From Thermoanaerobaculia bacterium (GTDB lineage Bacteria > Acidobacteriota > Thermoanaerobaculia > Multivoradales > JBJKRB01), in NCBI GenBank assembly GCA_046704885.1, contig JBJKRB010000158.1:46400-110399 (forward strand): DNA of 64,000 bases. The letters run 5' to 3'. Below are positions 5,373-53,402 of the stretch, piece after piece. The notes beneath the pieces were generated by a model that did no database searches, was not told where the DNA came from, and saw nothing but the letters and a program-made list of their open reading frames with translations. Made by a program: the position numbers and the translations under genes. The stretch's first letter is position 1; each line of letters begins with the position of its first letter.

Positions 5373-7202
5373 CTAGTCCGCTTCTCGCTCGAGCGAACAA
5401 CAGTGGGGGGCCGAAGACGGCGATGTCTCGGCCTCGAGGACGCTGCCACGGGTTGGATTCGGGCGGAAGGTGGTGCAACCTTTGAGGCTGCGCTCGTAGG
5501 CGAGACGATAGAGGTTGCGGAAGCTTTCGAAGGGATAATTCTCGGGGATGTTGAGCGTCTTCGAGATCGCGCTGTCCACGAAGGGCTGAAGCGCCGCTTG
5601 CATGGCGAGGTGCTTCTCCGGTTCGATCTCGCGCGCGGTGGCGAAGATGTCGCCGGGAGGCGCTCCATTCCCGAGGTCGGCCCAACGCGCTACCGCGTCG
5701 TCCGTGACCTCGAACTGGCGAGGACCCGACACGCCGACGACTCGGCGCGTGTAGCGCCGGGCGAAGACCGGTTCGAGCCCGCTCGATACGTTGTTGGCCA
5801 GCACACTGATCGTCCCCGCCGGGGCGATCGCGGTGAGGTGGCTGTTGCGGATACCGTGCGTGGCGATCGCTTCTCGGACCGCTGCCGGGAGGGCGGCGAT
5901 GAATTCGCCTTCGAGATAGGGTTTTTGCTCGAATTCGGGAAAGGGTCCCTTCTCTTCGGCGATCTGGGTCGAGGCGAGGTAGGCGCTGTGGCAAATTGTT
6001 CGCATGGCCTGCGCCGCGATCTCTCGCCCTTCGGCGCTCGCATAACCGCGGCCGAGAAGGATCAGCGCGTCCCCGAGACCCGTGATCCCGAGTCCCACCC
6101 GCCGCGAGCGGCGGGCCCGTTGCGCCTGGTGCTCGAGCGGGAAATCCGAAGCGTCGATCACGTTGTCGAGCATGCGAACCGCGATCCTGGCGGTGGCGCG
6201 AATGCCCTCGAGGTCGAGACTTGCCGCAGGGCTGAACGGATTGCGCACGAAACGGGCGAGGTTGATCGATCCCAGGTCGCAGGCGCCGTACGGCGGCAGG
6301 GGGATCTCGCCGCATGGATTGGTCGCCGAGATCTGTTCCCGGTAGGCCAGGTTGTTGACTTCATTGATGCGATCGATGAAGAGGACGCCGGGCTCCGCAG
6401 TCTCGTAAGTCGAGCGCATCAAGCGATCCCAGAGGCGTCGCGCCGGGACCACGCGGATGACGCGGCAGGGTACCGGCTGGTCGGTTCCAGACCAACGCCG
6501 CCATAAGACCCTATCGTCGGCGGGCTGACTTCCTGCTTGCTCGCCGACGTCGGTCGAGAGCGGGAAGACAAGGGGCCACTCGTCGTCGCGTTCGATCGCC
6601 GCCATGAGCTCATCGGTCACCAGCAGCGACAGATTGAAGTTGACGAGCTCGCCGGGCGAGTGCTTGGCCGCAATGAACTCCTCGACGTCGGGATGGTCGC
6701 AGCGCAGGGTCGCCATCATGGCTCCGCGTCGCGCTCCGGTCGATAGCATGGTGGCGCACATGGCGTCCCACACCCTCATGAAGGACACCGGTCCGGAAGC
6801 CACGGTGCCGGCGCTCACGGCGGGGGCGCCGCGTGGCCGCAGGGTGGAGAAGTCGTACCCCACGCCGCCCCCTTGTTGCATCGTAAGAGCGCCTTCCTTG
6901 AGCGCCTGAAAGATGCCGTCCAGAGAGTCTTCGATCGTACCCATTACGAAGCAGTTGAAGAGGGTCACCCGGTGAGGGTTTCCGCATCCCGCGAGGATGC
7001 GGCCGCCGGGCAAGAAGCGGAAGTCGCGCAGGATGGAGAGGAACTCCTCTTCCCGCTGGGAGCGCCCGGCGGACTCCACGGCGGCCAGGGTGGTGGCCAC
7101 GCGTTGCCACGTCTCTTCGATCGAGGCTTCGCCGTCGAGCCGGTACTTGCTCTTCCAGATCTGCTCGGAGAGCTCGTTGGTGAAGGGGCCGCGGTCCGGC
7201 AC
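5373..7202 (-). CDS. nrdJ: adenosylcobalamin-dependent ribonucleoside-diphosphate/triphosphate reductase (class II RNR)
   Basis: 609 aa. ATNPCGEI active-site motif, glycine-rich GGGVGYDFS, C-terminal Cys pair (PHCCSLE). Start is GTG at 7202 with GGAGG 12-13 nt upstream. Confidence 0.88.
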   Translation of the reverse strand: MPDRGPFTNELSEQIWKSKYRLDGEASIEETWQRVATTLAAVESAGRSQREEEFLSILRDFRFLPGGRILAGCGNPHRVTLFNCFVMGTIEDSLDGIFQALKEGALTMQQGGGVGYDFSTLRPRGAPAVSAGTVASGPVSFMRVWDAMCATMLSTGARRGAMMATLRCDHPDVEEFIAAKHSPGELVNFNLSLLVTDELMAAIERDDEWPLVFPLSTDVGEQAGSQPADDRVLWRRWSGTDQPVPCRVIRVVPARRLWDRLMRSTYETAEPGVLFIDRINEVNNLAYREQISATNPCGEIPLPPYGACDLGSINLARFVRNPFSPAASLDLEGIRATARIAVRMLDNVIDASDFPLEHQAQRARRSRRVGLGITGLGDALILLGRGYASAEGREIAAQAMRTICHSAYLASTQIAEEKGPFPEFEQKPYLEGEFIAALPAAVREAIATHGIRNSHLTAIAPAGTISVLANNVSSGLEPVFARRYTRRVVGVSGPRQFEVTDDAVARWADLGNGAPPGDIFATAREIEPEKHLAMQAALQPFVDSAISKTLNIPENYPFESFRNLYRLAYERSLKGCTTFRPNPTRGSVLEAETSPSSAPHCCSLEREAD

Positions 7203-7209
7203 CGGGTGG

Positions 7210-8247
7210 TCAGCCTCCGATCTGGACGAAACTCTGTAGGTTGCCGCTGGATCCCTCGTGCAGCCGATGCTGCTCCGGTTTGACCCGCATCAGCTCGAGA
7301 ATGCGGCGACGCAGCGCCTCCTCGGGGTGATCCGTGCTCAGAAGGTGGCGCAGGGGATAGTCGCGCTCGGCGAAGAGGCAGAGCCGCGCCTCACCCCGGG
7401 CGGTGAGTCGCAGGCGGCTGCAAGTGCTGCAAAAGCTGTGAGACATGGGGCTGATGAAACCCAGCGTTCCGAGGAAGCCGGGAATCTGAAAGACCCGGGC
7501 CGGGCCGTTTCCGATCTTCTCGCTCGCCGGCATGAGACGTCCGAAGCGGGCCTCGATGCTGCTTCGCGCCGCAACCGCGGAGAGGAAGCCTCGAGCCGTC
7601 AACTCCTCGTTGGCCGGAGTCGCCATTAGCTCGATGAAGCGGACGGAAAGGGGAAGGCGGCGGGTGAGCTCCACCATCCGGTCGATGTCCGCTTCATTGA
7701 TGCCGGCCAGCAATACCATGTTGAGCTTCACGGGATCGAATCCGGCTTCGAGCGCGGCTCGAACCCCCCTCCAAACCCGCTCCATGTCGCCCCTGCGAGT
7801 CACGGCGAGGAAGGTTTCCGGATCCAGACTATCGAGGCTCACATTGACCCGTCGTATCCCTGCCGCGCGCAGTGCCGGCGCCATGCTCTCCAGAAGCATG
7901 CCGTTGGTCGAGAGGGCAAGGTCTTCGACACCCGGTATCCTCGCGACGCGGCGCGCGATCTCGAGAACGTCCTTGCGCACCAGGGGCTCGCCTCCGGTGA
8001 TCCGGAGGCGGCTGATGCCGAGGGAGACAAAGGCTCGAACCATCGTCTCGAGCTCGTCGGGAGCGAGAAATCTACGATCGCCGTAAGGAAACTCGGCGTC
8101 GGCCGGCATGCAGTACTGACAACGAAGGTTGCAGCGGTCGGTCACTGAGATCCGCAGGTAGTCGAGCCGGCGTCCGAAGGCGTCGATGAGGGCTGCGGGC
8201 TCAGTCGGCGCCGCCCGCTCCTCGGCGGCTGTGGCTACGGCGCTCAT
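7210..8247 (-). CDS. moaA: GTP 3',8-cyclase MoaA (radical SAM; molybdenum cofactor biosynthesis)
   Basis: 345 aa. CNLRCQYC radical-SAM cluster motif, C-terminal second-cluster cysteines (CSTCSRLRLTARGEARLC), GG C-terminus. Confidence 0.9.
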   Translation of the reverse strand: MSAVATAAEERAAPTEPAALIDAFGRRLDYLRISVTDRCNLRCQYCMPADAEFPYGDRRFLAPDELETMVRAFVSLGISRLRITGGEPLVRKDVLEIARRVARIPGVEDLALSTNGMLLESMAPALRAAGIRRVNVSLDSLDPETFLAVTRRGDMERVWRGVRAALEAGFDPVKLNMVLLAGINEADIDRMVELTRRLPLSVRFIELMATPANEELTARGFLSAVAARSSIEARFGRLMPASEKIGNGPARVFQIPGFLGTLGFISPMSHSFCSTCSRLRLTARGEARLCLFAERDYPLRHLLSTDHPEEALRRRILELMRVKPEQHRLHEGSSGNLQSFVQIGG

Positions 8248-8296: not shown

Positions 8297-8348
8297 TTGA
8301 CCCCCCGCTCGTGGTGTCCGTACAATCCGATATTCTTCCGTACGGACA
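8297..8348 (+). promoter_or_regulatory. near-consensus sigma70 promoter (TTGACC-18nt-TACAAT) overlapped by a 9-bp perfect inverted repeat (TGTCCGTAC-N16-GTACGGACA)
   Basis: TTGACC 8297-8302, TACAAT 8321-8326. Inverted-repeat arms 8315-8323 and 8340-8348. ATG of the downstream ORF at 8352. Confidence 0.6.
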
Positions 8349-8351
8349 GTC

Positions 8352-9083
8352 ATGATCACGGGCTACAACACAGACGTCAAGCATGGTGAAGTGGTCTTTC
8401 ACGTTCAGACGGAAGACAAGGGGGAGTCCAATCCCTGGGTCGAGAGCCTGATCTACGTAGGTGGGAGGGTCGTTGCGTCGAAGCGAGCTAGTTACGCGGA
8501 ACTGCTCAAAGATAGCTCGGACACTCAGTTCATCATGGCGTTGATGGAGCGCCAGCACCGCCTGATGATCGCCGCGATCCGCAACGGTCGCCTCGACGGC
8601 AGGCTGCAGGAGCTCGGCTTGGCGCAAGCGGGGACCGGGCGGGCGGTGCAAGCCGTGGCGAGCTCCGGCTCGAGCCACGGTGCGGAGCTCGCGCCCGCGA
8701 CGAGTGGCGAAGATGGTGGTGGCGAGGAAGGCGCGGCCCCGAGCCTGGATCAGGTCATCCTCGATTACCTGACCAACGAGGCGAGTCAGGAACAGCTCGA
8801 GCTTCATCTAGATCTCGGCGCTGACCTGGCGCTGGGACAGCGGACGGAGCTCAAACTCTCGACAACGGCCAGCAAGTCGCAGCGGCCGGTCGCCGCCGCG
8901 ATGGTGATCGTCAAGATGATTTCGACGGTGCGCGAACCGGTGACGCTCGCCGAGGGTGCGACGGATGGCGACGGGCGCCTCGATTTGACCATCGAAGTTC
9001 CCGCTCTGGAGCGAGGCACGGCCGCCCTGATCATCACCGCGACGAGCGAGCTCGGCAACGCGGAGATGAAGCATCTCCTGTGA
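8352..9083 (+). CDS. conserved hypothetical protein (243 aa); no family recognised
   Basis: Long ORF in the coding-strand context immediately downstream of the strong promoter. Stop overlaps the RBS region of the ThiS/MoaD-like gene. N-terminal ITGYNTDVKHGEVVFHVQTEDKG. Acidic low-complexity middle. Beta-rich C-terminus. Confidence 0.6.
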   Translation: MITGYNTDVKHGEVVFHVQTEDKGESNPWVESLIYVGGRVVASKRASYAELLKDSSDTQFIMALMERQHRLMIAAIRNGRLDGRLQELGLAQAGTGRAVQAVASSGSSHGAELAPATSGEDGGGEEGAAPSLDQVILDYLTNEASQEQLELHLDLGADLALGQRTELKLSTTASKSQRPVAAAMVIVKMISTVREPVTLAEGATDGDGRLDLTIEVPALERGTAALIITATSELGNAEMKHLL

Positions 9084-9100
9084 AGGGAAGGAAGACGGCG

Positions 9101-9346
9101 ATGTCCGGGGATCAGGATTCAGTGGAAATTCAGCTCAACGGCGCGGCGCGGCACGTGCCTGCCGGTGTGACCGTGGCGGATCTCCTCGCGGATCTAGGGT
9201 TCGATTCCCGTACGGTGGCGATCGAACGCAACGGTTCGATCCTCGCGCGCGACCGGTTTGAAAAGGTGGATCTAGAGCCTGGCGATCGCCTCGAGATCGT
9301 GCGTTTCGTGCAGGGTGGACGCGGTTGCAGTCGCGAAGCCGATTGA
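9101..9346 (+). CDS. ThiS/MoaD-family sulfur-carrier (ubiquitin-like beta-grasp) protein with 8-residue extension after the Gly-Gly
   Basis: ATG 9101 preceded by GGAAGGAAG. 81 aa, VEIQLNG...VAIERNGSIL...GDRLEIVRFVQGG followed by RGCSREAD. Pattern matches ThiS (MQIxxNG...INQ.IV...GD.I...GG). Confidence 0.7.
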   Translation: MSGDQDSVEIQLNGAARHVPAGVTVADLLADLGFDSRTVAIERNGSILARDRFEKVDLEPGDRLEIVRFVQGGRGCSREAD

Positions 9347-9364
9347 GTATAGTTTGCGGCGCGT

Positions 9365-9440
9365 GGGCCGCTAGCTCAATTGGCAGAGCAGCAGACTCTT
9401 AATCTGCGGGTTCGGGGTTCGATTCCCTGGCGGCTCACCA
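9365..9440 (+). tRNA. tRNA-Lys (anticodon CTT)
   Basis: Hand-folded cloverleaf. Acceptor GGGCCGC/GCGGCTC. D-loop with GG. Anticodon stem GCAGA/TCTGC with loop CTCTTAA. T-arm CGGGG-TTCGATT-CCCTG. Encoded CCA. Confidence 0.85.
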
Positions 9441-9533: not shown

Positions 9534-9622
9534 CGCGAAAGTGGCGGAATTGGCATACGCGCTAGACTTAGGATCTAGTCCCGAGTGATCGGGTTGGGGG
9601 TTCGAGTCCCCCCTTTCGCACC
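9534..9622 (+). tRNA. tRNA-Leu (anticodon TAG), class II with long variable arm
   Basis: Acceptor GCGAAAG/CTTTCGC. Anticodon stem CTAGA/TCTAG with loop CTTAGGA. Long variable arm TCCCGAGTGATCGGG. T-arm GGGGG-TTCGAGT-CCCCC. Encoded CCA. Confidence 0.85.
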
Positions 9623-9672
9623 ATAGCGGCAACGCAACCATTCATCGCTTTCCGCAGCGCAACGAGGATTTC

Positions 9673-19266: not shown

Positions 19267-21105
19267 ATGGGAGAATCGGATGCCTCTCCGGCCGGGGTCG
19301 AGCCCAGTAGATCTCGCCGGGGAGCCCTGATCTATGTCTTCATTGCGGCCCTGGTCGGCAAGCTCGCGTTTGTGGGTTGGGCCTTGCGACCGCGAGACCT
19401 GGTGCAGACCTATCCCTTCATGTTGGGCGATTCTCAGGACTGGGTCGCTTCGGGGCTGGCTCTAGCCGGCTTCCATGTACAAGACTCGGTTCGGCCTCCA
19501 GGTCTGCCTTTGTTGCTGGCTGCCCTCGACAAGGTCGGTGCCCTCACCGCTTTCCCGATCGTTCAGCAGGTTCTTCTGGCGGCCGCTGCGTGTCTCTTGT
19601 TCTTCCTGCTTCGAAAGCGTGCCGGATTGGAGCCGGCGTTCTTCGCTGCCGCGCTGCTCCTCCTTTCTTCCCTGCCCTTCACGCTCTCGCTCCCCGTCCA
19701 CGCGGATTCGCTCAGCGGCGTCTTGTTGCTGGCGGCTGTGAGCACGTTTCTCTATGCTCGTCGCTTCCCTTATGCCTACCTCCTTGCGGGTTTGATCGGC
19801 GCCCTGGCGGCCCTCACGCAGGGAGCCGCGTTTCTAGCGGCGCCAGCAGCGGCGTTGGTGCTCTTGGTCCGGCGTCGTCAGGACCTTCGGAATGTCTGGC
19901 TATTGGCGGGCGTAGTGATCTTCGGGTCCGGCGTAGCCGCGTGGTCTGTGATCAAGCTCATCAGGTACGGCACCGCAGGTGACGTGGTGACTCGGCATTG
20001 GAGCCTGTTGGGACTCCACCCGCAGAACCTGATTTTCTACGCTGCGGCCCTCCTTGCCATTCTGGGGCTTCCGGGCTTGCTCGTTGGACTCAAGGGGGCC
20101 GTCGCGATGAGCCGGCGCCGCGGCGAAGATGATCTGCTCGTGCTGGGCACAGTTGTGATGGTCCTTGGTTTTCTTGCGCTCGTGTACGGTTGGACGGCTG
20201 AACGCTTTCTTCTCGTAGTTCTTCCCCTTCTCGCTTGGGTCGTGGCGATGGGGCTAGCCACTCTTGGACGCAGGTCGCAAACGCTCTTCGGCGTCCTCAT
20301 CCTCGTGTTTGCCTTCCTGCCTCTCCCGGTTGCCAGCCCGCCCGTTTGGAGACTGTGGCCGTTTCCCAGCATTACGATTCAAGGGTTCGGGCGAGTGGTC
20401 CCCGCCGAGGGCCTGAGACAGGAGTGGATGCGGGGCCCTTGGGAGAGCATCTACCGAACGGCGGCGAATGAGCGGAGACATCCGGGAATCGATCGAGCGC
20501 TCTTCGCCGGCGCACCTTCCCGGGGCGTTTTGCTTTTCGCCCGAGGCGCCTACTCGAGGCCGAGCTATTTGGAGAGCAAGAGACTGGGCAATATTCTTCG
20601 GCGGCGGTTCACACCGGTACCGGCTGGGCTCTATCCCCTCGGGTGGTGGGGCTGGAGCTGGTCCCGTCGCCTTTCGCCCGTTGGTAGGTGGTGCGTCTTG
20701 GAACTCGATCTCCCTGCGCTGCCGGCGATTCTCGCACTTACCGAAGGCGGGGTATGCAATCACTCTGGATCGCCGAGAGTGCCGCCCGGGAGCTACGGTC
20801 GGTGGATCGCCGAATTCAGGGAGATTGCGAAGGAGGTGGGGCCTGGCGATCCCTTCATCGCTGTCGTTGGTTCGGAGCGAAGCGACTGGGTACGTCTCGC
20901 GCCACTGGCTCTCGAAAGCGCGAACTTGGTCGTTGTCGCCCCCGCCCGCCTACCAAAGTCACTCAACGTGGAAGGAAAGGAGGCGTCTTTCGGTGACTTC
21001 GCTCTAGCTCGCGGTGAAGCGGTGGGCCGCCCCGTCTGGGTCCTGCGGCGGAAGAGTGGGGCGCGGCCCGCTGATTATCAGAGATCAATTCACGACGAAA
21101 GGTAG
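19267..21105 (+). CDS. polytopic membrane protein, GT-C-like glycosyltransferase candidate (ArnT/PMT/arabinofuranosyltransferase-like) with C-terminal soluble domain
   Basis: 612 aa. About 11 predicted TM helices in the first ~350 aa. Acidic first-loop motif GDSQDW after TM1. Roughly 260-aa hydrophilic C-terminal domain. 9 nt upstream of the DprE1 homolog. Confidence 0.55.
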   Translation: MGESDASPAGVEPSRSRRGALIYVFIAALVGKLAFVGWALRPRDLVQTYPFMLGDSQDWVASGLALAGFHVQDSVRPPGLPLLLAALDKVGALTAFPIVQQVLLAAAACLLFFLLRKRAGLEPAFFAAALLLLSSLPFTLSLPVHADSLSGVLLLAAVSTFLYARRFPYAYLLAGLIGALAALTQGAAFLAAPAAALVLLVRRRQDLRNVWLLAGVVIFGSGVAAWSVIKLIRYGTAGDVVTRHWSLLGLHPQNLIFYAAALLAILGLPGLLVGLKGAVAMSRRRGEDDLLVLGTVVMVLGFLALVYGWTAERFLLVVLPLLAWVVAMGLATLGRRSQTLFGVLILVFAFLPLPVASPPVWRLWPFPSITIQGFGRVVPAEGLRQEWMRGPWESIYRTAANERRHPGIDRALFAGAPSRGVLLFARGAYSRPSYLESKRLGNILRRRFTPVPAGLYPLGWWGWSWSRRLSPVGRWCVLELDLPALPAILALTEGGVCNHSGSPRVPPGSYGRWIAEFREIAKEVGPGDPFIAVVGSERSDWVRLAPLALESANLVVVAPARLPKSLNVEGKEASFGDFALARGEAVGRPVWVLRRKSGARPADYQRSIHDER

Positions 21106-29255: not shown

Positions 29256-30392
29256 TTAGGTGCGGCGGCGAATCGGCTCGCCGGATATGGCCGTACGGTT
29301 GCGTCCGGTCTGCTTTGCCACGTACATGGCCGCGTCGGCAAGGCGGAGGAGCGTGCTCTTGTCGTCGCCAAGGGCGCCTTCGGCATTGAGGTGACGATTC
29401 AGACTGGCTACCCCGATCGAGCAGGTCTGTCCGGTGAGGTGAATCGGTTCGGGTTGAATCTCTCCCGGCTTGTCGCAGAAGACCGCCCCCAAGATCGTAT
29501 TGCGGATGGTCTCGGCGAGGTCTACCGCCTCGTCCAGCGAGATTCCCGGCAGAATCAGGACGAACTCGTCTCCACCGTAGCGCGCGGCCAGGGCTTCGCG
29601 ATAGGGAACCAGCTCGGACAGGATCTTTCCGACTTCGCGCAGGACTTGACTGCCCGCGAGATGTCCATGGGCGTCATTGACCCGTTTGAAGAAGTCCAGA
29701 TCGATGAATAGGAGGGAGAGGTCCCGGGACTCGTTGCGGCAGCTCTCGATCTCGTTGGCCAGGGCGATGTGCAAGTAGCGGTCGTTGAACAGTCCGGTGA
29801 GGTTGTCGCGCTTCGCCATCTCTTCGGCCCGGCGGCCATCCAGCACGTTTTGGATCGAGATCGAGATGTAGTCCGCGAAGATCTCGAGGAGCTCTCGATC
29901 CTTCTCGCCGTAGGCAGCGCTGCCCTGGCTGTTGATCAGCTCCAGAACACCACAGACAGCGTGCTCGATGCGGATGGGTATCGCGATCAGCGATTCGGTC
30001 TTGTAGCGGGTGCTTCGATCGACGTCGGGAAAGAAGTACGGGTCCTTGCGCACCTGCGAGGTGTAGTACGAGCGACCCGTGAGGTAGACGTGACCGGCGA
30101 TCCCTTGGTCCGCTGCGAGAGTGCGGCCGAGCAAATCCACGGCATGGGGACCGAAGGCGGCGACGAAAGTGAGGACATGCTGGCTACGATCCCCATTCTT
30201 GTCACGCGGCCGGTCCAGCAAGATCGAGCCGGAGTCCGAGGGGACAAACTCGTTCGCCTTGCGCAAGACCTCCATGAAGTTCTTGGTGAGGCTTGCTTCA
30301 AGGGGGAACGCGGGGCCCGCCCGATGCCGGTCGAGGAAGGTTTCGAGGGCATCCGGAGCGAGGCTGTGGACTTCCACCATTGCGATGCTCAC
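29256..30392 (-). CDS. GAF-domain diguanylate cyclase (GGDEF)
   Basis: 378 aa. N-terminal GAF-like domain. GGDEF domain with intact RYGGDEF active site and RxxD-like I-site context. The track start GTG 30392 may be ATG 30380. Confidence 0.85.
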   Translation of the reverse strand: MSIAMVEVHSLAPDALETFLDRHRAGPAFPLEASLTKNFMEVLRKANEFVPSDSGSILLDRPRDKNGDRSQHVLTFVAAFGPHAVDLLGRTLAADQGIAGHVYLTGRSYYTSQVRKDPYFFPDVDRSTRYKTESLIAIPIRIEHAVCGVLELINSQGSAAYGEKDRELLEIFADYISISIQNVLDGRRAEEMAKRDNLTGLFNDRYLHIALANEIESCRNESRDLSLLFIDLDFFKRVNDAHGHLAGSQVLREVGKILSELVPYREALAARYGGDEFVLILPGISLDEAVDLAETIRNTILGAVFCDKPGEIQPEPIHLTGQTCSIGVASLNRHLNAEGALGDDKSTLLRLADAAMYVAKQTGRNRTAISGEPIRRRT

Positions 30393-30438: not shown

Positions 30439-32235
30439 TCATGCGAGGCGACGGAGTAGCTTCCGGGAGCGCTGCACGAGCTCGGTACCGAGCTCATCGG
30501 AGGCGGAGAGCTGCGGCGCGTAGCGAAGAAAGTGCAGGTCCTCAGCGAGTTGCGAGAGCTCGTTGGTGGTTTCGGCTTCCACCCCCCGCCTTCTCAGGAG
30601 AGCTCCCCAACGAGCGCTGGGCGTGCCCATCGGTACCGCCCACTTCTCGTCGAGAAATTCGCGCCACAGCTCATCGAGGGCGTTGGCGGTCCTTCGCGGT
30701 GAGGCGCCAAGGGTGATGCCGGAGATGCGCCCGAGGTAGCGCTGAGCGATCTCGCTCTGCTGCGGATTGCGCCGCCCCCAATTGTGACGCCCAAGGATGG
30801 CGACGGCCCCCGCCGCGACGAGAAGACCGACGATCAATCCACCCCATTCCCAGGGATGCGCCCAAAGAGCACCCATCACTCCTCGCCGAGGCTGCGCGCT
30901 CCCCTCGTTCGGACCGCTGACCGTTGGGCGAGTAGGCGCCGGAGCGGGTGGCGGTGCGGGGACCGCGGTCAACTCGAGCGCTGGGGTCGTGGCCTTGGCA
31001 TAGGAGGCGGTCTGAGGGTCGAAGTAGGGAATCGTGACGGGCGGCAACGTCCAGTGCGCGCTCTTTTGAGGCACCAAGACGTAGGTCCAGGTGGCGCTCT
31101 CTCGAACCCGGGTGCCGATCAACTTGGTGTTGCTCTCGCTCTGGGGCGCAAAGCTCTCGAGACCCGGCAGGTTGGGCAGGGAAGGGGCGGAAAGGCCCTG
31201 CACATGGCCGAAACCGGCCAGAGTCAGGGTCAGGGTCGCGGCGTCTCCCACCTTGATCTGGCGGGGGGTGAGTGAGGCGTGGATCGACAGCGCCCCGACC
31301 GCCCCGTTGAAATCGGCGGGTGGTGCTGGCAACGCCCGTACCGAGATGGAAAGCGGCTGAACCTGCCGCCGAACCTCGACCGTTCTCTCGAAGAGCCCCC
31401 CAAAGCCTCCTTCCCCGGGAACGCTCAAGGTCAACCGGGCCTTGGCAGCCCCGATGGTCAGGGCACCTGAGTGAAGTGGGAAGAGCGCTCTCTGGAGCAG
31501 CACGACTCTCCCGAATTGCTGCCCGTGCACGGCCACCATGTCGGGCTGCAGGTGAGTTGGTTGCGGAATCTCCTTGACCCAGAAGCCGTGAAAGTCGGGG
31601 ATCTCTTGGGGATCGATATTGTCGACGTCACCCTGGGTATACAGGTAGAGGGTGTAGAGCACCTGTTGTCCGACATAAGGGTTTTGCGGATTGGCTACGG
31701 CTTGGAGGAACACACCGGGCATCGTTTGCGGCGGAGAGGCGGGGGCCGCGAACGGTGAGCTCGGAGCTGAGAAAGGCTGCATCAAAGCGCCGAAAGGCGA
31801 GAGGCTCTGATTTTGCGCCGCCCCCGGATGAAGAGTTGCGGTGTTCTCCACATCGATGGTCTGGTCGGGGATCTCGATCTGGCGGCCGCGGGCCTTGACG
31901 ACGATGCTCTTGACCCGCGCCGGACCCGGATGCAAGGGGTGAAGCTGCCACGTCAAGCTGATGCTGCGCGAGGTGAACCCGTTGACGAAGCGAACTTGAT
32001 CCGAGCGAAACGGCCCCGCCACCGCCTCGAGGTTGTCGAGCTTGAAACCCGGGTGCAGGTCGATTCCCCCGAATCCCTGAGCTCGCGCGGTGATGGTGAA
32101 GGTGACGAGCTCATTGAGCCCGATCCGCGTCGGACTGATCTGAGCGTTGACCTGGACGGATGGCGCGCTCCACGCCGCCAGGCTCGAGGCGACGGCGACC
32201 ACTACGGCAATGGAAAGGGCTCGCGGCCACCTCAC
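30439..32235 (-). CDS. batD: BatD-family protein (Bacteroides aerotolerance operon protein D homolog)
   Basis: 598 aa. GTG start overlapping the batC stop (GTGA). Signal peptide, large beta-rich periplasmic region, C-terminal TM segment (WGGLIVGLLVAAGAVAILG). Position after batC. Confidence 0.75.
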   Translation of the reverse strand: MRWPRALSIAVVVAVASSLAAWSAPSVQVNAQISPTRIGLNELVTFTITARAQGFGGIDLHPGFKLDNLEAVAGPFRSDQVRFVNGFTSRSISLTWQLHPLHPGPARVKSIVVKARGRQIEIPDQTIDVENTATLHPGAAQNQSLSPFGALMQPFSAPSSPFAAPASPPQTMPGVFLQAVANPQNPYVGQQVLYTLYLYTQGDVDNIDPQEIPDFHGFWVKEIPQPTHLQPDMVAVHGQQFGRVVLLQRALFPLHSGALTIGAAKARLTLSVPGEGGFGGLFERTVEVRRQVQPLSISVRALPAPPADFNGAVGALSIHASLTPRQIKVGDAATLTLTLAGFGHVQGLSAPSLPNLPGLESFAPQSESNTKLIGTRVRESATWTYVLVPQKSAHWTLPPVTIPYFDPQTASYAKATTPALELTAVPAPPPAPAPTRPTVSGPNEGSAQPRRGVMGALWAHPWEWGGLIVGLLVAAGAVAILGRHNWGRRNPQQSEIAQRYLGRISGITLGASPRRTANALDELWREFLDEKWAVPMGTPSARWGALLRRRGVEAETTNELSQLAEDLHFLRYAPQLSASDELGTELVQRSRKLLRRLA

Positions 32236-33059
32236 CAGTCCTTCTCCGTTGACGACCGGCGCTCAGCCCGCTTGAGAGCGGCCTCGCGACGCTGTTGACG
32301 CTCGAGGTTCTCTACCGCATTGAGGATGGCGGCCGCTTGCGCGGCGCTCATGTTCGGCTGGTCTTTGAACTGGGGAAGAACTGACCCGTGCTTCGGAGCG
32401 TTCTTCAGCGCCTTCGGTTCGCCGGTTGCCGCCTGGCGCTTCCCGGACGCCTGGCTCTGCGCCTCGCGTGGAGCCTTTCGCTCCGGAGGGCGCTGAGCTC
32501 CGGTGGAGCGTCCTTGCTCCCTGCCGCCCGGTTTTTGCTGCTGGCTCGCTTCCTTCTGCTCCCGGCGGCGCTCTTCCTTGCGCTGCTTCTCGAGCTGGCG
32601 CAGGGCGAGCTCCAGGTTGTACTTAGCGTCGGGTTGATGAGGATCGGCGAGCAGGCTCTTCTCGAAAGCCGAGACCGCGCCAGCCGGGTTCCCGGAGGCC
32701 AGCAGAGCGTTGCCCAAGTTGTACTCAGCCTCGGGCAGCAACCTGGGAGGCGCCTTTCCAGATGCCTTCTCGAGGAGCTGGGCGGCTCCGAGTCCATCCT
32801 TCGCAACGAGATGCGCGGTGCCCGAGTTGTAGAGAACAGCAGGGTCTTTCGGCGCCAGTCGTTGGGCGCTGTCGAAGTCGCGAACGGCGGATTTGACGTC
32901 GCCCTTGTCGAGTGCGTCGAGACCCCGATCGGTGCGCTCACGCGGGTTGTAGAGCCAGCGCTCCACGGCGCGGGGCCAGTGCAGGAAGCTGTCGACAGCC
33001 TGGCGTAGCGGGAGGCTTGCGGGGAGGAGGAGCAGGGCGGCCAGAACGATCGCTTTCAT
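32232..33059 (-). CDS. batC: BatC-like TPR-repeat protein
   Basis: Start set to ATG 33059 (MKAIVLAALLLLPAS signal peptide; ATGA overlap with the batB stop). TPR repeats. K/E/R-rich C-terminal tail. Confidence 0.7.
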   Translation of the reverse strand: MKAIVLAALLLLPASLPLRQAVDSFLHWPRAVERWLYNPRERTDRGLDALDKGDVKSAVRDFDSAQRLAPKDPAVLYNSGTAHLVAKDGLGAAQLLEKASGKAPPRLLPEAEYNLGNALLASGNPAGAVSAFEKSLLADPHQPDAKYNLELALRQLEKQRKEERRREQKEASQQQKPGGREQGRSTGAQRPPERKAPREAQSQASGKRQAATGEPKALKNAPKHGSVLPQFKDQPNMSAAQAAAILNAVENLERQQRREAALKRAERRSSTEKDW

Positions 33060-34069
33060 GGTTCCAGCCCCTTTCGAGCCGCGGGCATGGCGCTCATGGA
33101 GAGCCAGAGGATGAGAGCGGCGACGGCCGCGGCCAGTGGCCATTGGAAGCGGGGGGCGTGGGTGGTGATCGTCTCGCTCGAGAAGCGGCGTCCGCTCAAA
33201 CTGCTGAGCCGGTGAAGGATGGGCTGCGGATCGGTGGCCAGAGATGTGGCGCGGAGGTAGACCCCGCCGGTACCACGGGTTAGCTCTTCGAGGTTTCCTT
33301 CCTCGAGGCGAGAGATCACGATCTTGCCACTCTCGTCGCGCTTGTAGTCGCCGGGTGCTCCCCCAGGGATGGGGATCGGCGCGCCTTGCGGCGTACCCAC
33401 CCCGATGGCGCTGACCATGACGTCGGCATCCTTGAGCTTGCGCAAGGTGCGCTCGAGTCCGCCCTCATGATCCTCCCCGTCGGAGACGATGATGATCGCC
33501 CGGTGCTCCTTGCTGTTCTCGGGGAAGAGCTTCAATGCCTGGTCGATTCCGGCCGCCAGGTGGGTCCCCGGGCTCGGCATCGAGCCTGGTTGGGCGGTTT
33601 CCAAGAGCAGGTCGATGGCTTCCGAGTCCGTCGTCAGCGGGGTCATCACGACCCCGTCCCCTGCGGCGAAGACGAGACCGACCCTATTGTTCGGCATGCT
33701 CTGGGTCAGGCGGCGGATCATTGTCTTGGCGACCGCCATACGGGATGGATAGACGTCCGGGGTGGCCATGGAGAGGGAGGCATCGAGAACGAAGACGATA
33801 TCGAGTCCCCGCCGGTGTACCTCCTCCTTCACGACGCCCCAGCGGGGCTCGGCAAGGCCGAGTGCCGTGCCGAGCACGGCGATTCCCAGGAAGAAGAGGG
33901 ACAGCATCCAGCGCCGCCCGTCGAGATGCACTCCCAGGCGTCTCCACAGCCGGGGCGCGGCCCACGCTCGCATGGCCGCCAGGCGTTGGCGCCAGAAGAA
34001 AGCGGCAACCAAGGCGGCGGCGGGCGCCAGAAGAGTGAGCCAGAGCAGGGCGGGGTGACCGAAGCTCAT
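33056..34069 (-). CDS. batB: BatB-like von Willebrand factor A domain membrane protein
   Basis: Start set to ATG 34069 (ATGA overlap with the batA stop). N-terminal TM pair. vWA MIDAS motif DIVFVLDASLSM ... TDGE. Confidence 0.8.
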   Translation of the reverse strand: MSFGHPALLWLTLLAPAAALVAAFFWRQRLAAMRAWAAPRLWRRLGVHLDGRRWMLSLFFLGIAVLGTALGLAEPRWGVVKEEVHRRGLDIVFVLDASLSMATPDVYPSRMAVAKTMIRRLTQSMPNNRVGLVFAAGDGVVMTPLTTDSEAIDLLLETAQPGSMPSPGTHLAAGIDQALKLFPENSKEHRAIIIVSDGEDHEGGLERTLRKLKDADVMVSAIGVGTPQGAPIPIPGGAPGDYKRDESGKIVISRLEEGNLEELTRGTGGVYLRATSLATDPQPILHRLSSLSGRRFSSETITTHAPRFQWPLAAAVAALILWLSMSAMPAARKGLEP

Positions 34070-35061
34070 GGTTCGACGCTCACCCGCGTCGCGGTCGTGG
34101 CGAGAGGTAGAAGCAATAGCGCCAGCGCGGTCCAAGCGAGGGGCTGGAACGCTTCGCGGTAGCGAACGTATTGCTTGACCTTGATCCGACTCTTTTCGAG
34201 CCTGTCGATCTGAGCGAAGATCTGGCGCATCTCTTCGCTGTCGGTGGCCCGGTAGAAGTGCCCGCCGGTCAGGTCCGCGATCTTCTCGAGGAGGTTGTCG
34301 TCGACTTGCACGTTCATCATTACGCGGCGAGTTTCAGGCTGTCCGGTGAAGGGGTTTTGCATCGTTACCGGCACCGGCACACGGCCCGTGGTACCCACAC
34401 CGACGGTGTAGACCTTGATGCCCAGCCCCTTGCAGACGGTTGCGGCGGACAGCGGGTCGATCGCCCCAGCGTTGTTGACCCCGTCGGTAACCAGGACCAC
34501 GACCTTCGATTTGGCCTTAGAGTCCCTGAGCCGCGCCGCCGCATCCGCGAGAGCGATCCCGATGGCGGTTCCGTCCGGCAAGCTGTTGAGACGCACTCCA
34601 TTGAGGAGTTGGGTAAGCATCTCGTGATCCGTAGTCAACGGCGCCCGAGTCAAGGCGGCGCCCGCGAAGACCACGAGCCCGATCCGGTCCGCGGGGCGGT
34701 GCTCGACAAAGTTCTCGACCACCTGCTTGGCGACGGTCAGTCGATTGCGCGGATGGAAGTCCTCAGCGCCCATGCTTCCCGAAATGTCGAGAGCGATCTC
34801 GATGTCGATTCCTTGAGTAGAGCTCTCTTGCCATCGATAACCGAGCTGGGGCCGAGCCAGAGCGATGATGAGGAGAGCGCAGGCCGCGAGCCGGGAGTAG
34901 AAGGGCAGGTGAAGCCGCCAGCGACCGAGGGCGTGCTGCTTGGGCAGCGCGCCGATGGTCAGAGCGCCGCTTCGGTCGCGGCGGTGGTGCCACCAGGCGA
35001 GCGCTGGGAGAGCGAGAAGGAGCAGCAGGAGCCACGGATTGTTGAAGTGAGCCAGGCTCAT
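34066..35061 (-). CDS. batA: BatA-like von Willebrand factor A domain membrane protein
   Basis: 331 aa. Two N-terminal TMs. vWA MIDAS DIEIALDISGSM ... LVTDGVNNAG. C-terminal TM. Confidence 0.85.
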   Translation of the reverse strand: MSLAHFNNPWLLLLLLALPALAWWHHRRDRSGALTIGALPKQHALGRWRLHLPFYSRLAACALLIIALARPQLGYRWQESSTQGIDIEIALDISGSMGAEDFHPRNRLTVAKQVVENFVEHRPADRIGLVVFAGAALTRAPLTTDHEMLTQLLNGVRLNSLPDGTAIGIALADAAARLRDSKAKSKVVVLVTDGVNNAGAIDPLSAATVCKGLGIKVYTVGVGTTGRVPVPVTMQNPFTGQPETRRVMMNVQVDDNLLEKIADLTGGHFYRATDSEEMRQIFAQIDRLEKSRIKVKQYVRYREAFQPLAWTALALLLLPLATTATRVSVEP

Positions 35062-35990
35062 GCGCTCTTCTCGACGTCGGCGGGTACAGGCCGTAGCCGC
35101 GTTTCGAGAGCGCGGCCGACCTCAAGGGCTCGGGCGATTCGGTCCTCAGCTACGCTGCGCTCCGCCCGGTGGCGGGCGAACTTCACCTGATCGCAATCGA
35201 GAAGCAGCTGCACGCACGAGCGAGACCAGACTTCCGGCTGGCGCCGGTTTCGCAGCTCGTCCCGGATTTCCCGCGTGGTCCGATCGCAAGCAGAAAAAGA
35301 AAGAACGCGTCCCAAGTAGCCCCGCAAGGCGAGGCTGACGGCGGTATGAAGGCGATCGAGATCCGTCTCTCGCCGGGCCTCATTCAGCCTTGCCTCGAGC
35401 TCCTCTAGGGGCGGCTTTAGAGGTCGCGTAAGTCCCTCCGCGCCGGCTCGGCGCCGGCGCCGGTAGAGAAGCGCGAGGGCGGCCAGGACCATGAGAGAGC
35501 CGGCGGCGCCAGTCCACCAGAAAGCGGCGCCGAGACCGAGGGGACGGGGTGGCGCTGGGGGCTTGGGAACTAGCTTCGTACCCTTCTCTTCGGCTGATGG
35601 CAACACCGAGCGCACATGAAGGGCGAGCTCGTCCGGAGTCGCGACCTCGGCCGTACTGGAATGGAACGGTACGGCGATCTGGCGCGGGGGCAGGGGAATC
35701 TTCCCGGTGGAGAAGGGGACGAGGGTGACGCTCTGCTCGAAGACCTGTTCGCCGTTCTTCTTCGACACTTTTCGCACGGGCCCGGCTTTGAGAACTCGGG
35801 CGTTTCCCCAGCTGTCCTTCCACACCGGAAAGCGAGGGGGGCCGGCGAGCTGGTCGGCCGCGACCGTAAGGCTGAGGGTGACCTCGGTTCGATCGCCGAC
35901 CGTGAGCTGGTCGGGCTGAATGGAGACCGAAAGGTGAGCAGGCACCGGAGGTAGCACCGCGGCCGCCAGAAGCAAGGAGGCAAGCATCAT
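35058..35990 (-). CDS. Bat-operon membrane protein (DUF4381-like), function unknown
   Basis: 310 aa. Signal peptide, periplasmic beta region, a TM near the middle (AAFWWTGAAGSLMVLAALALLYRRRRR), C-terminal helical domain. Conserved position between DUF58 and batA. 4-nt overlaps on both sides. Confidence 0.55.
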   Translation of the reverse strand: MMLASLLLAAAVLPPVPAHLSVSIQPDQLTVGDRTEVTLSLTVAADQLAGPPRFPVWKDSWGNARVLKAGPVRKVSKKNGEQVFEQSVTLVPFSTGKIPLPPRQIAVPFHSSTAEVATPDELALHVRSVLPSAEEKGTKLVPKPPAPPRPLGLGAAFWWTGAAGSLMVLAALALLYRRRRRAGAEGLTRPLKPPLEELEARLNEARRETDLDRLHTAVSLALRGYLGRVLSFSACDRTTREIRDELRNRRQPEVWSRSCVQLLLDCDQVKFARHRAERSVAEDRIARALEVGRALETRLRPVPADVEKSA

Positions 35991-36916
35991 CGGCTGAGCC
36001 TCCGTCGCCGCTGCTCGAAGAAAGCAACGAGCGGGCTCAAATAGGGGCGGTCGGTGCGCAATTCCAGGTGGTCGATGCCGAGCCGGCGGGTCAGTCGCAA
36101 GAGCTCGGAACGCTGATGGCGCCTCCTTGCGCGGTGCTCCGTTGCGAGCTTCTTGCCGGAGACGATCGCGAGGGCGCCGGTCTCCGCATCGCGCAGCACG
36201 GTGGGACCGACCGATGGGAGGATCGTCTCGCGCGGATCGACGATCTCGACCGCGATGACGTCGTGACGGCCGGCCGCGGTCTTCAGCGCTGCGGCATAGG
36301 AAGTGTTGAGAAAGTCGGAGATCACGAAGACCACCGATCGCCTCTTGAGATTGCGCAGAACGGCGGGGATGGTGCCGTCGAGATCGGTCCCGCCGTGTGC
36401 CGGCCGGCCGAGAATCTCACGCACGAGACGCAAGACGTGGTTTCGTCTTTGCTGGGGCGCGAGCCAGAGCTCGAGACGATCGCTCACCAGAGCGGCCCCC
36501 ACCCGGTCCTGATTGCGCAGTGCCGCGAAAGCCAAGAGGGCGGCGACCTCGGCGGCGAGATCGCGTTTGAGGATCGAGCGCGAGCCGAAGGAGAGGGAAC
36601 CCGAAACATCGACGATCAGGAAGACCGTGAGGTCCCGCTCTTCGACATATTGCTTGACGTAGGGGTGCCCCATGCGCGCGGTGACGTTCCAATCGATGGC
36701 TCGGATCTCGTCGCCCGGCTGGTAGGGGCGAACCTCCGTGAACTCGACGCCGCGTCCGCGGAAGACCGAGTGGTAGTCGCCGGCCACGCCCTGGTCTACA
36801 AGCCGCTTGGTGGCGATCTCGATGCGGCGGACCTTGCGCATCAATTCGCCGGGGAGAGCCGCGGCGCGCGCCGGCTCCGGGTCAGGCGGCGCTACTGAGG
36901 GGAAACGGAGCAGCAT
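35987..36916 (-). CDS. DUF58-domain protein (MoxR-associated, vWA-like)
   Basis: 309 aa. DUF58 hallmark GDExRAIDWNVTARMGHPYVKQYVEERDLTVFLIVDVSGSLSFGS. Confidence 0.85.
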   Translation of the reverse strand: MLLRFPSVAPPDPEPARAAALPGELMRKVRRIEIATKRLVDQGVAGDYHSVFRGRGVEFTEVRPYQPGDEIRAIDWNVTARMGHPYVKQYVEERDLTVFLIVDVSGSLSFGSRSILKRDLAAEVAALLAFAALRNQDRVGAALVSDRLELWLAPQQRRNHVLRLVREILGRPAHGGTDLDGTIPAVLRNLKRRSVVFVISDFLNTSYAAALKTAAGRHDVIAVEIVDPRETILPSVGPTVLRDAETGALAIVSGKKLATEHRARRRHQRSELLRLTRRLGIDHLELRTDRPYLSPLVAFFEQRRRRLSR

Positions 36917-36937
36917 GAGATCCCCGCCGTATCGAGG

Positions 36938-37957
36938 TCAGGGAACCTCCAGGCGGTCGAGCAAGCGACGCACCAGGTCGTCGCTCGAGATCTCCTCTGC
37001 TTCAGCCTCGTAGGTGGGGACAAGCCGATGACGGAGAACGTCCGCCGCAATCTCTTTGACGTCTTCGGGGATCACGTAGCCTCGCCCCCGAACCAGGGCC
37101 ATCGCCTTCGCGGCGCGCGCCAGGAAGATGGTCGCCCGGGGCGAGGCGCCGAAAGAGATGAGATCCTCGAGCTCTGGAAGGCCCGCGCTCTTGGGTTGGC
37201 GGGTGGCGGAGACCAGGTCCAAGATGTACTTCTTGATCTTCGGGTCCAAGTAAACCGAGTCGGCGACGTGGCGAAGGGCGAGCAACCGGGCTCCGTCGAT
37301 GACTCTGTGCACCTCGATCTTGTGCTCGACCAGCATCCGGTCGAGGATCGCCTGCTCTTCGCTCCGCGTCGGGTAGTCGAGCTTCAGCTTCATCAGGAAG
37401 CGATCGACTTGCGCTTCGGCGAGGGGGTACGTACCTTCCTGTTCGATCGGATTCTGAGTCGCCAGCACCATGAATGGCTCATTCAAGAGGTAGGTCGTAT
37501 CGCCCAGGGTGACCTGCCTCTCCTCCATGGCCTCGAGGAGCGCCGACTGCACCTTGGCTGGCGCTCGGTTGATCTCGTCGGCGAGTAGAAGTTGAGTGAA
37601 GATGGGCCCCTTGCGCGGGACGAAATCACCCGATCGCTGGTCGTAGATCAACGTTCCGAGGAGATCGGCTGGAAGCAGATCGGGGGTGAATTGGATGCGC
37701 TGGAAGTCCACGGTGAGGACTCGCGCGAGAGTCTTGACGGCGAGCGTCTTGGCTAATCCGGGTACGCCTTCGATCAAGAGGTGCCCGTGTGAGAGAAGAC
37801 CCACTAAGAGGCGATCGATCAAGTAATCCTGCCCGACGATGACCTTGTGGAGCTCGGCTTCGACCTGCCGCAGGGTGAGAGCTTCTCGCTCCACCTTCTG
37901 ACTCAGCTCCTCGAGGTCGGGCGCCTCGCTGTCGATCGGCTTCGTTGTCGGTTCCAT
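36938..37957 (-). CDS. moxR: MoxR-family AAA+ ATPase
   Basis: Start set to ATG 37957 (GGAGGGAGG RBS; MEPTTKPID...). Walker A GVPGLAKT, Walker B LLADEINRA, sensor regions. Confidence 0.9.
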   Translation of the reverse strand: MEPTTKPIDSEAPDLEELSQKVEREALTLRQVEAELHKVIVGQDYLIDRLLVGLLSHGHLLIEGVPGLAKTLAVKTLARVLTVDFQRIQFTPDLLPADLLGTLIYDQRSGDFVPRKGPIFTQLLLADEINRAPAKVQSALLEAMEERQVTLGDTTYLLNEPFMVLATQNPIEQEGTYPLAEAQVDRFLMKLKLDYPTRSEEQAILDRMLVEHKIEVHRVIDGARLLALRHVADSVYLDPKIKKYILDLVSATRQPKSAGLPELEDLISFGASPRATIFLARAAKAMALVRGRGYVIPEDVKEIAADVLRHRLVPTYEAEAEEISSDDLVRRLLDRLEVP

Positions 37958-37963
37958 ACAGTG

Positions 37964-38026
37964 CCTCCCTCCACACTCCCCGATGTGCAAGCGAAATGCC
38001 AGTGAACACCACGAATTGGAGGGAGG
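37964..38026 (-). promoter_or_regulatory. 5' leader element: 9-nt anti-SD (CCUCCCUCC) about 45 nt upstream of the perfectly complementary moxR SD (GGAGGGAGG); predicted RBS-sequestering hairpin
   Basis: On the minus strand the 38026-38018 segment is the exact reverse complement of the 37972-37964 segment. The latter is the RBS 6 nt before moxR ATG 37957. Confidence 0.45.
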
Positions 38027-45071: not shown

Positions 45072-45545
45072 ATGCCGACCTCGGACGACTTCTCCCATCT
45101 CGATCTCGCCGGTCGTCTGCGCATGGTCGATGTCTCCGAAAAGGAGGTCACCAGGCGGGTCGCCGAAGCCTCATGCAAAGTCTTGCTGGCGCCTGAGGTC
45201 GTGGCGCGGATCGAGGATCTTCCCAAGGGAGACGCCCTTGCCGCGGCACGATTGGCGGGAGTCCAGGGAGCGAAGCGCACCGCCGAGCTCATTCCGCTGG
45301 CCCATCCGTTGCCGCTCGAGCAGATCGTGATCGAGATCGAGCCGGGCGACGATGGCGTGACGATCCGCAGCAGGGTGGTCGTTACCGGCAAGACGGGCGC
45401 TGAGCTCGAGGCTCTCGTCGCGTGCAGCACCGCGGCCCTCACCCTCTACGACATGGTGAAAGCGGTGGAGCGGGGTGCGGTAATCACTGATCTGCGCTTG
45501 GACGCCAAGAGTGGCGGAAGAAGCGGCGACTACCGGCGCCCCTGA
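45072..45545 (+). CDS. moaC: cyclic pyranopterin monophosphate synthase MoaC
   Basis: 157 aa. HLD...MVDVSEKEVTRRVA N-terminus, GDALAAARLAG(V/I), TGKTG and CSTAALTLYDM blocks typical of MoaC. Confidence 0.9.
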   Translation: MPTSDDFSHLDLAGRLRMVDVSEKEVTRRVAEASCKVLLAPEVVARIEDLPKGDALAAARLAGVQGAKRTAELIPLAHPLPLEQIVIEIEPGDDGVTIRSRVVVTGKTGAELEALVACSTAALTLYDMVKAVERGAVITDLRLDAKSGGRSGDYRRP

Positions 45546-53344: not shown

Positions 53345-53402
53345 GGCGCCCTGATCGCGTCGGCAGCCCGAAACTTCCCAAGGCTTGGCTGGCAGTTCGC
53401 TT

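Follow-up and report, generated by a model that had tools for sequence, protein, structure and literature searches.

We have analysed a stretch of 64,000 nucleotides (nt) of Thermoanaerobaculia DNA (the window; G+C 64.5%) in which a pair of tightly linked genes lies between a divergent moaA gene and two tRNA genes. The first gene codes for a 243-residue protein and the second for an 81-residue ThiS-like protein whose Gly-Gly motif is internal, being followed by the eight residues RGCSREAD. Judged by their sequences, both genes can be placed in known families: the upstream gene encodes a homologue of RomY and the downstream gene the sulfur carrier ThiS. We think it probable that the pair forms a conserved Acidobacteriota operon in which the two genes do different jobs, and that the tail on ThiS has arisen by read-through into the promoter of the following tRNA gene and is trimmed by a peptidase encoded elsewhere.

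Organization of the locus

The locus contains the following features.

7210-8247, minus strand: moaA (GTP 3',8-cyclase; TIGR02666, 357.8 bits), the divergent neighbour, listed for context only
8297-8326, plus strand: promoter-like site TTGACC-18-TACAAT, 5' of the romY-like gene (consensus scan)
8352-9083, plus strand: romY-like gene, 243 residues, protein start MITGYNTDVKHGEVVFHVQTEDKG
8352-8615, plus strand: RomY N-terminal domain, residues 1-88
8631-8726, plus strand: disordered acidic/Gly-rich linker, residues 94-125
8736-9080, plus strand: helix 'LDQVILDYL' and seven-strand Ig-like beta-sandwich, residues 129-243
9086-9094, plus strand: purine-rich Shine-Dalgarno-like sequence GGAAGGAAG, 6 nt before the thiS ATG, read from the sequence
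9101-9346, plus strand: thiS open reading frame (ORF), 81 residues, ending GDRLEIVRFVQGG-RGCSREAD-stop
9101-9319, plus strand: thiS core, residues 1-73, ending Gly72-Gly73 (GG codons 9314-9319)
9320-9346, plus strand: thiS tail, eight codons for RGCSREAD (9320-9343) and TGA (9344-9346)
9325-9353, plus strand: predicted tRNA-Lys promoter, with -35 box TTGCAG (9325-9330), 17-nt spacer and -10 box TATAGT (9348-9353)
9365-9440, plus strand: tRNA-Lys(CTT) (ARAGORN; Rfam RF00005, 64.3 bits)
9535-9623, plus strand: tRNA-Leu(TAG) (ARAGORN; Rfam, 59.1 bits)

The coordinates and translations given for the two ORFs in the original prediction are confirmed, as are the divergent moaA gene (by TIGR02666) and the pair of tRNA genes (by ARAGORN). 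The two protein-coding genes are separated by 17 nt, and the spacing is similarly short at most related loci. The original prediction placed the thiS ribosome binding site over the stop codon of the upstream gene. Strictly, the Shine-Dalgarno-like sequence begins just after that stop (9081-9083), although the tight coupling that the overlap was meant to convey stands. Translation of thiS is assigned to the ATG at 9101 and not to the GTG at 9080, because in the nearest relative, locus L170, an in-frame stop codon precedes the gene, which likewise has 81 codons. The promoter-like site 5' of the romY-like gene falls within the 104-nt region dividing it from moaA; the consensus scan found two promoter-like sites, compared to 0.2 expected in shuffled sequence.

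Beyond the two tRNA genes come tig, clpP, clpX and lon, an order that relatives keep, and tRNA-Lys comes after thiS in the Thermoanaerobaculia and Holophagae loci examined. The upstream side is more variable. Some relatives, such as L003 and L170, have moaA there, whereas L002 has other genes and Blastocatellia have nuoABCD.

The upstream protein is assigned to the RomY family

The 243-residue protein, which the original prediction could not place in any family, has no significant Pfam match. Nevertheless, residues 1-82 are matched by the NCBIfam profile NF053858 (RomY_Nterm) with a score of 100.9 bits (cutoff 50) over profile positions 1-82 of 83. On this evidence the protein is a long-form homologue of RomY. 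It is also a real and conserved gene product, with 1928 homologues in a 90%-clustered database, mainly from Thermoanaerobaculia metagenome-assembled genomes (MAGs), which share two strongly conserved domains. The N domain searched alone retrieves 2645 representatives at E <= 0.001; its identity is 46-77% across Acidobacteriota classes and ~51% to a 188-residue short-form member of the family (P0244).

The N domain (residues 1-88) is modelled by AlphaFold as four strands plus helices, with a predicted local distance difference test score (pLDDT) of about 91 (AF2 90.8). Both the alignment and the AlphaFold model show the following linker (residues 94-125) to be disordered and variable; among homologues its length varies between about 30 and over 150 residues. 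A conserved 'LDQVILDYLTNEA' helix then follows, which on comparison resembles the C-terminus NFDQVIADHLKRN of P0244, and the chain is completed by a seven-stranded beta-sandwich (residues 149-242, pLDDT 96-98) ending AE(M/L)KHLL. Neither domain has an enzyme-like fold or any likeness to a peptidase or an E1. Relative to L170, the ratio of nonsynonymous to synonymous substitution rates (dN/dS) is 0.03 for the N domain, 0.56 for the linker and 0.055 for the C domain. Selection thus differs sharply along the gene, the two folded domains being far more constrained than the linker.

RomY of Myxococcus xanthus (MXAN_5749) is a 188-residue co-GTPase-activating protein (co-GAP) that stimulates the GAP activity of MglB, a Roadblock-domain protein, toward the Ras-like GTPase MglA, an activity that resides mostly in its N-terminal domain (PMC9481161). 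Homologues have been recorded in Acidobacteria, Geobacter, Deferribacteres, Aquificae and Myxococcales, and the Mgl/Rom polarity module is present in other Acidobacteria (PMC9481161, S1 Table). The window protein shares with RomY the ~85-residue N domain, at twice the family cutoff and with the invariant GxNTD, HVQTEDKG and QH motifs kept. The short conserved 'LDQVI-DYL' helix after the linker resembles the C-terminal end of the short-form P0244. It differs in being 243 rather than 188 residues long, owing to an extra Ig-like beta-sandwich of ~95 residues, and in that its gene heads a thiS(-thiG) operon; RomY-type activity is here predicted from sequence. By homology with the Myxococcus protein, the N domain would most likely bind MglA-GTP and MglB and raise the GAP activity of MglB, and in this way the protein would regulate cell polarity and surface motility.

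A divergent RomY_N-like ORF with 38% identity to the family consensus is found on the Trichlorobacter lovleyi plasmid pIAE1 (NZ_CP058410.1, 26035-26460; positions 6001-6426 of locus L172). Its neighbours (rdgC and genes for an RNB ribonuclease, VRR-NUC, topoisomerase IA, a UvrD-like protein and SSB) suggest plasmid DNA processing, an unexpected setting for a domain of polarity regulators.

The downstream protein is assigned as ThiS

The 81-residue protein passes the ThiS equivalog model TIGR01683 with a full-length match of 73.1 bits (cutoff 37.45), and scores 50.4 bits against PF02597 (cutoff 22.5). It aligns with Bacillus subtilis ThiS from the ThiS-ThiG complex (1TYG_B) up to the C-terminal GG of the latter. 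All invariant ThiS positions are kept, and the C-terminal E-I-V-x-F-V-x-G-G motif is present. The core shares 56% protein identity with that of L170 and has evolved at a dN/dS of 0.32 with a dS of about 1.1. By these measures the protein is the canonical sulfur carrier of the thiazole pathway. The profile searches called for in the original prediction return two known families, RomY and ThiS.

The gene neighbourhoods of relatives agree with this assignment. In Blastocatellia (Pyrinomonadaceae and Chloracidobacterium) the order is nuoABCD (divergent), romY-like, thiS, thiG, with thiG directly downstream of thiS in 44 loci (tblastn; ThiG PF05690, 356 bits). The nearest ThiS sequences outside the phylum end at GG and are encoded in thiE-thiS-thiG (Gemmatimonadaceae) or thiG-thiH-thiS (Dadabacteria) operons. 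The window protein has in common with ThiS a beta-grasp-sized core (TIGR01683; 1TYG) and counterparts in Blastocatellia that adjoin thiG. It differs from a typical ThiS in that its primary product carries eight extra residues after the Gly-Gly at residues 72-73, and in that its gene has no thiG, thiF, thiH or thiO nearby and no thiamine pyrophosphate (TPP) riboswitch, and stands between a romY-like gene, to which it is linked in translation, and adjoining tRNA genes. Besides the tRNAs, no TPP riboswitch or other Rfam element was detected in the window, and no TPP riboswitch was detected at 14 related loci, so that control of the romY-like gene by a thiamine riboswitch could not be used as a test.

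Given the divergent moaA gene next door and a moaC gene elsewhere in the window (45072-45545), and with no separate moaD or moaE found in the window, one might propose that the small protein is a MoaD-type carrier, or one that serves as both ThiS and MoaD, and is tied to molybdenum cofactor (Moco) synthesis. We regard this as very improbable. The ThiS equivalog cutoff is passed by a wide margin, whereas matches to the MoaD-related SAMP2 and HgcC families fall far below theirs. The adjacency of moaA is itself not conserved, being absent from L002 and replaced by nuoABCD in Blastocatellia, where the counterparts of the protein pair with thiG. No moaE lies near the window gene.

The tail overlaps a predicted tRNA promoter

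The 75 nt 5' of tRNA-Lys were aligned by eye on the tRNA start for 67 loci, revealing the pattern GTTGTCA-17/18-TATGAT/TATAGT, which ends ~10 nt before the tRNA. A sigma-70-like promoter before tRNA-Lys(CTT) is conserved in nearly all Thermoanaerobaculia and Holophagae loci. In the window the tail codons hold the -35 box TTGCAG and the spacer of this predicted promoter, and thiS is stopped at 9344-9346 by a TGA that belongs to the conserved 'TTGAGTAT' element, just before the -10 box. Here a protein-coding 3' end and a predicted tRNA promoter overlap; promoter function of 9325-9353 is inferred from the sequence pattern. The distance from the GG codon to tRNA-Lys is 45 nt in the window, compared to 58-293 nt in relatives whose ThiS stops at GG. 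In L169, and in the related ThiS protein P0134, the reading frame continues into the tRNA gene itself.

The closest comparison is with L170 and L171, in which the RomY-like protein is 81% identical to that of the window. ThiS there carries the tail CSCRREAL, also of eight residues and ending at the same stop, and the frame, length and ribosome binding site of thiS are preserved. The DNA of the tail plus promoter is 80% identical between the window and L170 (36 of 45 positions), matching the figure for the complete thiS gene, with no change in the TTGCAG and TTGAGTATAGTTTGCG elements. This degree of similarity is compatible with constraint on the promoter, so no function of the tail peptide needs to be assumed. 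The tail of the window protein is thus best explained as read-through of thiS into the tRNA-Lys promoter rather than as a dedicated pro-peptide. On this model the spacer between thiS and tRNA-Lys would have shrunk to 45 nt in the window lineage, whereupon the frame ran through the -35 box and the promoter spacer and came to end at the TGA within the promoter element TTGAGTAT.

We also looked for a general origin of tails in point mutations that turn the stop into a sense codon, and rejected it: 14 of 41 distinct tails start one mutation away from a stop codon, which is no enrichment over the 28% background.

A more pessimistic interpretation of the tail is that thiS is decaying or already non-functional in the window lineage, the Gly-Gly having been capped by loss of the stop en route to the deletions seen in sister lineages. 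Sister Thermoanaerobaculia loci that lack thiS, or that keep only a C-terminal fragment of it, show that such losses occur, neither thiG nor thiF lies within the 64 kb, and the ThiS dN/dS of 0.32 is 6-10 times that of the adjacent RomY-like domains. That value is still well below 1, and at a dS of about 1.1; moreover, the invariant positions are all kept, the ThiS cutoff is exceeded by far, and frame, length and ribosome binding site are preserved in L170/L171. Tails are in addition common in Blastocatellia, where the thiS-thiG operons look intact. We therefore consider decay unlikely.

Tails and ThiG fusions are frequent in Acidobacteriota

A word-index search for close ThiS homologues yielded only 23 proteins, and we therefore counted tails in DNA loci. 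Among 164 RomY-like loci collected from metagenomes and GTDB species genomes, ThiS could be read to its stop in 121. Residues past GG are present in 47 of these 121 Acidobacteriota genes, two ThiS-ThiG fusions included. ThiS of the xQGG type (Thermoanaerobaculia/Holophagae) ends at GG in 53/70 cases and has tails of 2-26 residues in the other 17/70. ThiS of the VGGG type (Blastocatellia) has tails of 1-34 residues in 28/51 cases, and two further genes of this type run in frame into thiG (30/51 in total). The 41 distinct tails have no common motif. We also aligned some 10-12 ThiS sequences from outside the Acidobacteriota, and no tail is present in any of them. The two ThiS-ThiG fusions are found in Pyrinomonadaceae/Acidobacteriota genomes (L137 and L150, around positions 5800-6900); their linkers read LQLGSRGPREYNSIMSTAAPAQSESFRIGNRTF... 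and NVSDEK..., and the Gly-Gly is internal.

ThiS acts through adenylation of its C-terminus followed by formation of a thiocarboxylate, for which the Gly-Gly carboxylate must be free. Selection has thus long maintained a tailed ThiS, with purifying selection on the core since before the split from L170: the core dN/dS is 0.32 at a dS of about 1.1, and the L170 tail has the same length. Since the carboxylate has to be free and the core has stayed under purifying selection, the tail is presumably removed post-translationally by a peptidase whose gene lies elsewhere, for which JAMM/MPN+ enzymes may serve as a precedent. A pathway that tolerates tails would account for the unrelated tails on so many ThiS proteins of the phylum, and for its two ThiS-ThiG fusions. 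The proposal in the original prediction of a sulfur carrier in need of proteolytic activation thus holds for a ThiS-type protein whose internal Gly-Gly must be exposed for its chemistry; the suggested role in Moco synthesis is unlikely, and the tail does not look like a dedicated pro-sequence.

Precedents for such processing exist. DRJAMM cleaves the Deinococcus MoaD-MoaE fusion (PMC8832034), and the 2006 survey of Iyer, Burroughs and Aravind proposed JAMM processing for fused ThiS/MoaD proteins (PMC1779556). The same survey noted that JAB genes are absent from thiamine and Moco operons (PMC1779556), and frequent tails on a housekeeping ThiS are, for this reason, atypical. When the window protein is set beside the JAMM-processed carriers (QbsE/QbsD, CysO/Mec+ and Deinococcus MoaD-MoaE), the likeness is that its Gly-Gly is internal, making proteolytic exposure logically necessary, and the ThiS-ThiG fusions of its relatives parallel the Deinococcus fusion. 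The differences are that no JAMM gene is linked to it, and that the tail is not conserved, nor is it short and fixed.

Residues after the Gly-Gly are a feature of QbsE and other JAMM-processed carriers (PMC1779556), and might be taken to mark the protein as a tailed ubiquitin-like (Ubl) modifier of a bacterial conjugation system, or of a JAMM-dependent secondary-metabolite system. This is scarcely credible here. Pfam scans of about 58 ORFs detected no E1, E2 or JAB protein in the window, and none is present among the called genes of the Pfam-annotated related loci; the tail is unconserved and promoter-derived; and sequence and context are those of a housekeeping ThiS. The statement in the original prediction that the window has no JAMM, E1 or ThiG gene is borne out by these scans and by tblastn with ThiG. 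Its suggestion of a Ubl with a dedicated, uncharacterised partner is not supported, given the membership of that partner in the RomY family, the lack of E1, E2 and JAB genes in the window, the thiG genes that directly follow the Blastocatellia counterparts, and the loss of thiS beside intact romY-like genes.

The romY-like and thiS genes are paired across three classes

The co-occurrence of the 243-residue family with ThiS-like genes that the original prediction asked about was counted in the 135 RomY-like loci whose sequence extends 330 nt or more downstream. At 119 of these (88%) the next gene downstream is a thiS on the same strand, in most cases no more than a few tens of nt away and in some overlapping the romY-like gene. 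The pairing spans three classes, being found in Thermoanaerobaculia, in MAGs labelled Holophagales, and in Pyrinomonadaceae and Chloracidobacterium. In one narrow lineage an in-frame fusion of RomY_N to a complete ThiS, 186-195 residues long and ending in GG, has been formed with deletion of the beta-sandwich. Logan, JGI and ENA assemblies supply four clusters, at 90% identity, of this fusion (P0257 and P0299-P0301). At locus L164 (5549-6109), which is Blastocatellia-like, it is divergent from nuoABCD and has no thiG downstream. A further protein, P0302 (308 residues), was not counted as a fusion of this kind, being a deletion chimera of a truncated beta-sandwich and the last third of ThiS.

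The pairing is not universal. At five loci (L018, L049, L061, L067 and L068) thiS is gone and the romY-like gene is followed directly by tRNA-Lys, and at three others (L064, L069 and L071) only a C-terminal remnant of thiS, the last 25 or so codons, is left. The romY-like and tRNA genes are intact in these Thermoanaerobaculia lineages. Another clade has a different gene downstream of the romY-like gene. Such loss of thiS beside an intact romY-like gene argues against an obligate coupling of the two. A scan of genome collections for RomY-like loci returned Acidobacteriota only, and the one RomY_N-like gene that we could reach outside the phylum (L172) has no ThiS nearby. We found nothing in the literature searched that links RomY with thiG, thiS, thiamine or a sulfur carrier.

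These patterns bear on the possibility of a functional coupling between the RomY-like protein and ThiS in the Acidobacteriota. In one version of this idea the beta-grasp ThiS would work alongside the RomY domain within the MglA/MglB module, in the manner of ubiquitin-fold Ras-binding domains; in another the RomY-like protein would assist the maturation of ThiS, its tolerance of tails or its loading with sulfur. The gene order in 119 of 135 loci, with its short or overlapping intergenic distances, the fusion recovered in four clusters from independent assemblies, the presence of tails beside romY-like genes and in none of the aligned ThiS sequences from outside the phylum, and the lack of a TPP riboswitch controlling thiS(-thiG) at the loci examined all speak for it. 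Several other considerations lead us to judge coupling distinctly improbable. At least 8 loci keep an intact romY-like gene where thiS has been deleted or survives only as a remnant, thiS followed by thiG in Blastocatellia is the arrangement of ordinary thiazole synthesis, and experiments have shown an activity of the RomY N domain that does not depend on ThiS (PMC9481161). Neither RomY-like domain resembles a peptidase or an E1, the fusion arose by in-frame deletion of the beta-sandwich in a single narrow clade, and the correlation of tails with RomY is confounded by phylogeny. To these may be added the RomY_N-like gene without a ThiS neighbour outside the phylum, and the lack of a literature link in our searches. 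Were the RomY-like protein nevertheless needed for ThiS maturation or use, this would explain why tails and ThiG fusions occur in exactly the romY-coupled lineages.

We thus favor a conserved operon of two genes with different jobs. Several observations weigh against this reading. A gene order conserved in three classes, close spacing and a RomY_N-ThiS fusion are classic signs of functional coupling, and two unrelated jobs leave them unaccounted for. The Pfam scans found no mglA or mglB in the window, so a RomY-type role is assigned by homology only, and romR and romX are likewise not visible in the window. Use of ThiS by the organism is likewise a prediction, since thiG (tblastn) and thiF (Pfam scans) were not found in the 64 kb, nor were thiH and thiO found near thiS. 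No trimming peptidase was found in the window, to which the search was confined; the Pfam scans detected no JAMM/MPN+ gene there. Finally, L002, L003, L005 and L008 have tails even though 121-268 nt separate their GG from the tRNA; promoter overlap therefore explains the tail in the window and not tails in general.

Other features of the window and of related loci

In four loci of the Holophagae type a Moco riboswitch (RF01055; 45-60 bits) lies on the minus strand 5' of the divergent moaA, at the following positions (Rfam).

L108, 4713-4835, minus strand: Moco riboswitch RF01055
L120, 4740-4863, minus strand: Moco riboswitch RF01055
L122, 4750-4874, minus strand: Moco riboswitch RF01055
L130, 4322-4444, minus strand: Moco riboswitch RF01055

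Rfam detected no such riboswitch in the 104-nt spacer between moaA and the romY-like gene of the window.

Elsewhere in the window, a row of genes on the minus strand (30439-37990) encoding BatD, TPR, VWA, VWA-BatA, 310-residue, DUF58 and MoxR AAA+ proteins corresponds to a Bat-type 'aerotolerance' operon, in which the 310-residue ORF (35061-35990) has no Pfam match. Just beyond it, on the same strand, is a gene for a GAF-GGDEF protein (29259-30392). The plus strand carries a 612-residue ORF of coding-like composition with no Pfam family at E <= 1e-6 (19267-21105), and a cluster for arginine deiminase, a carbamate-kinase-like protein and ornithine carbamoyltransferase (53385-56646), followed by a gene for an FHA-GAF-adenylate/guanylate cyclase protein (56674-58383).

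Implications

For the annotation of these genomes the gain is that a hypothetical protein next to an odd Ubl becomes two genes that can be named. The eye-catching feature of the pair, the tail on ThiS, would be a side effect of a reading frame that extends into a tRNA promoter. At the level of the phylum, the arbitrary ThiS tails and the ThiG fusions of Acidobacteriota imply a C-terminal trimming activity in a pathway whose operons lacked JAB genes in the 2006 survey. Across the phylum the thiS(-thiG) operon is headed by the romY-like gene, and one lineage has the two fused, an association for which we found no published explanation. If this pairing reflects function, it would link a regulator of a small GTPase to a ubiquitin-fold protein in bacteria.

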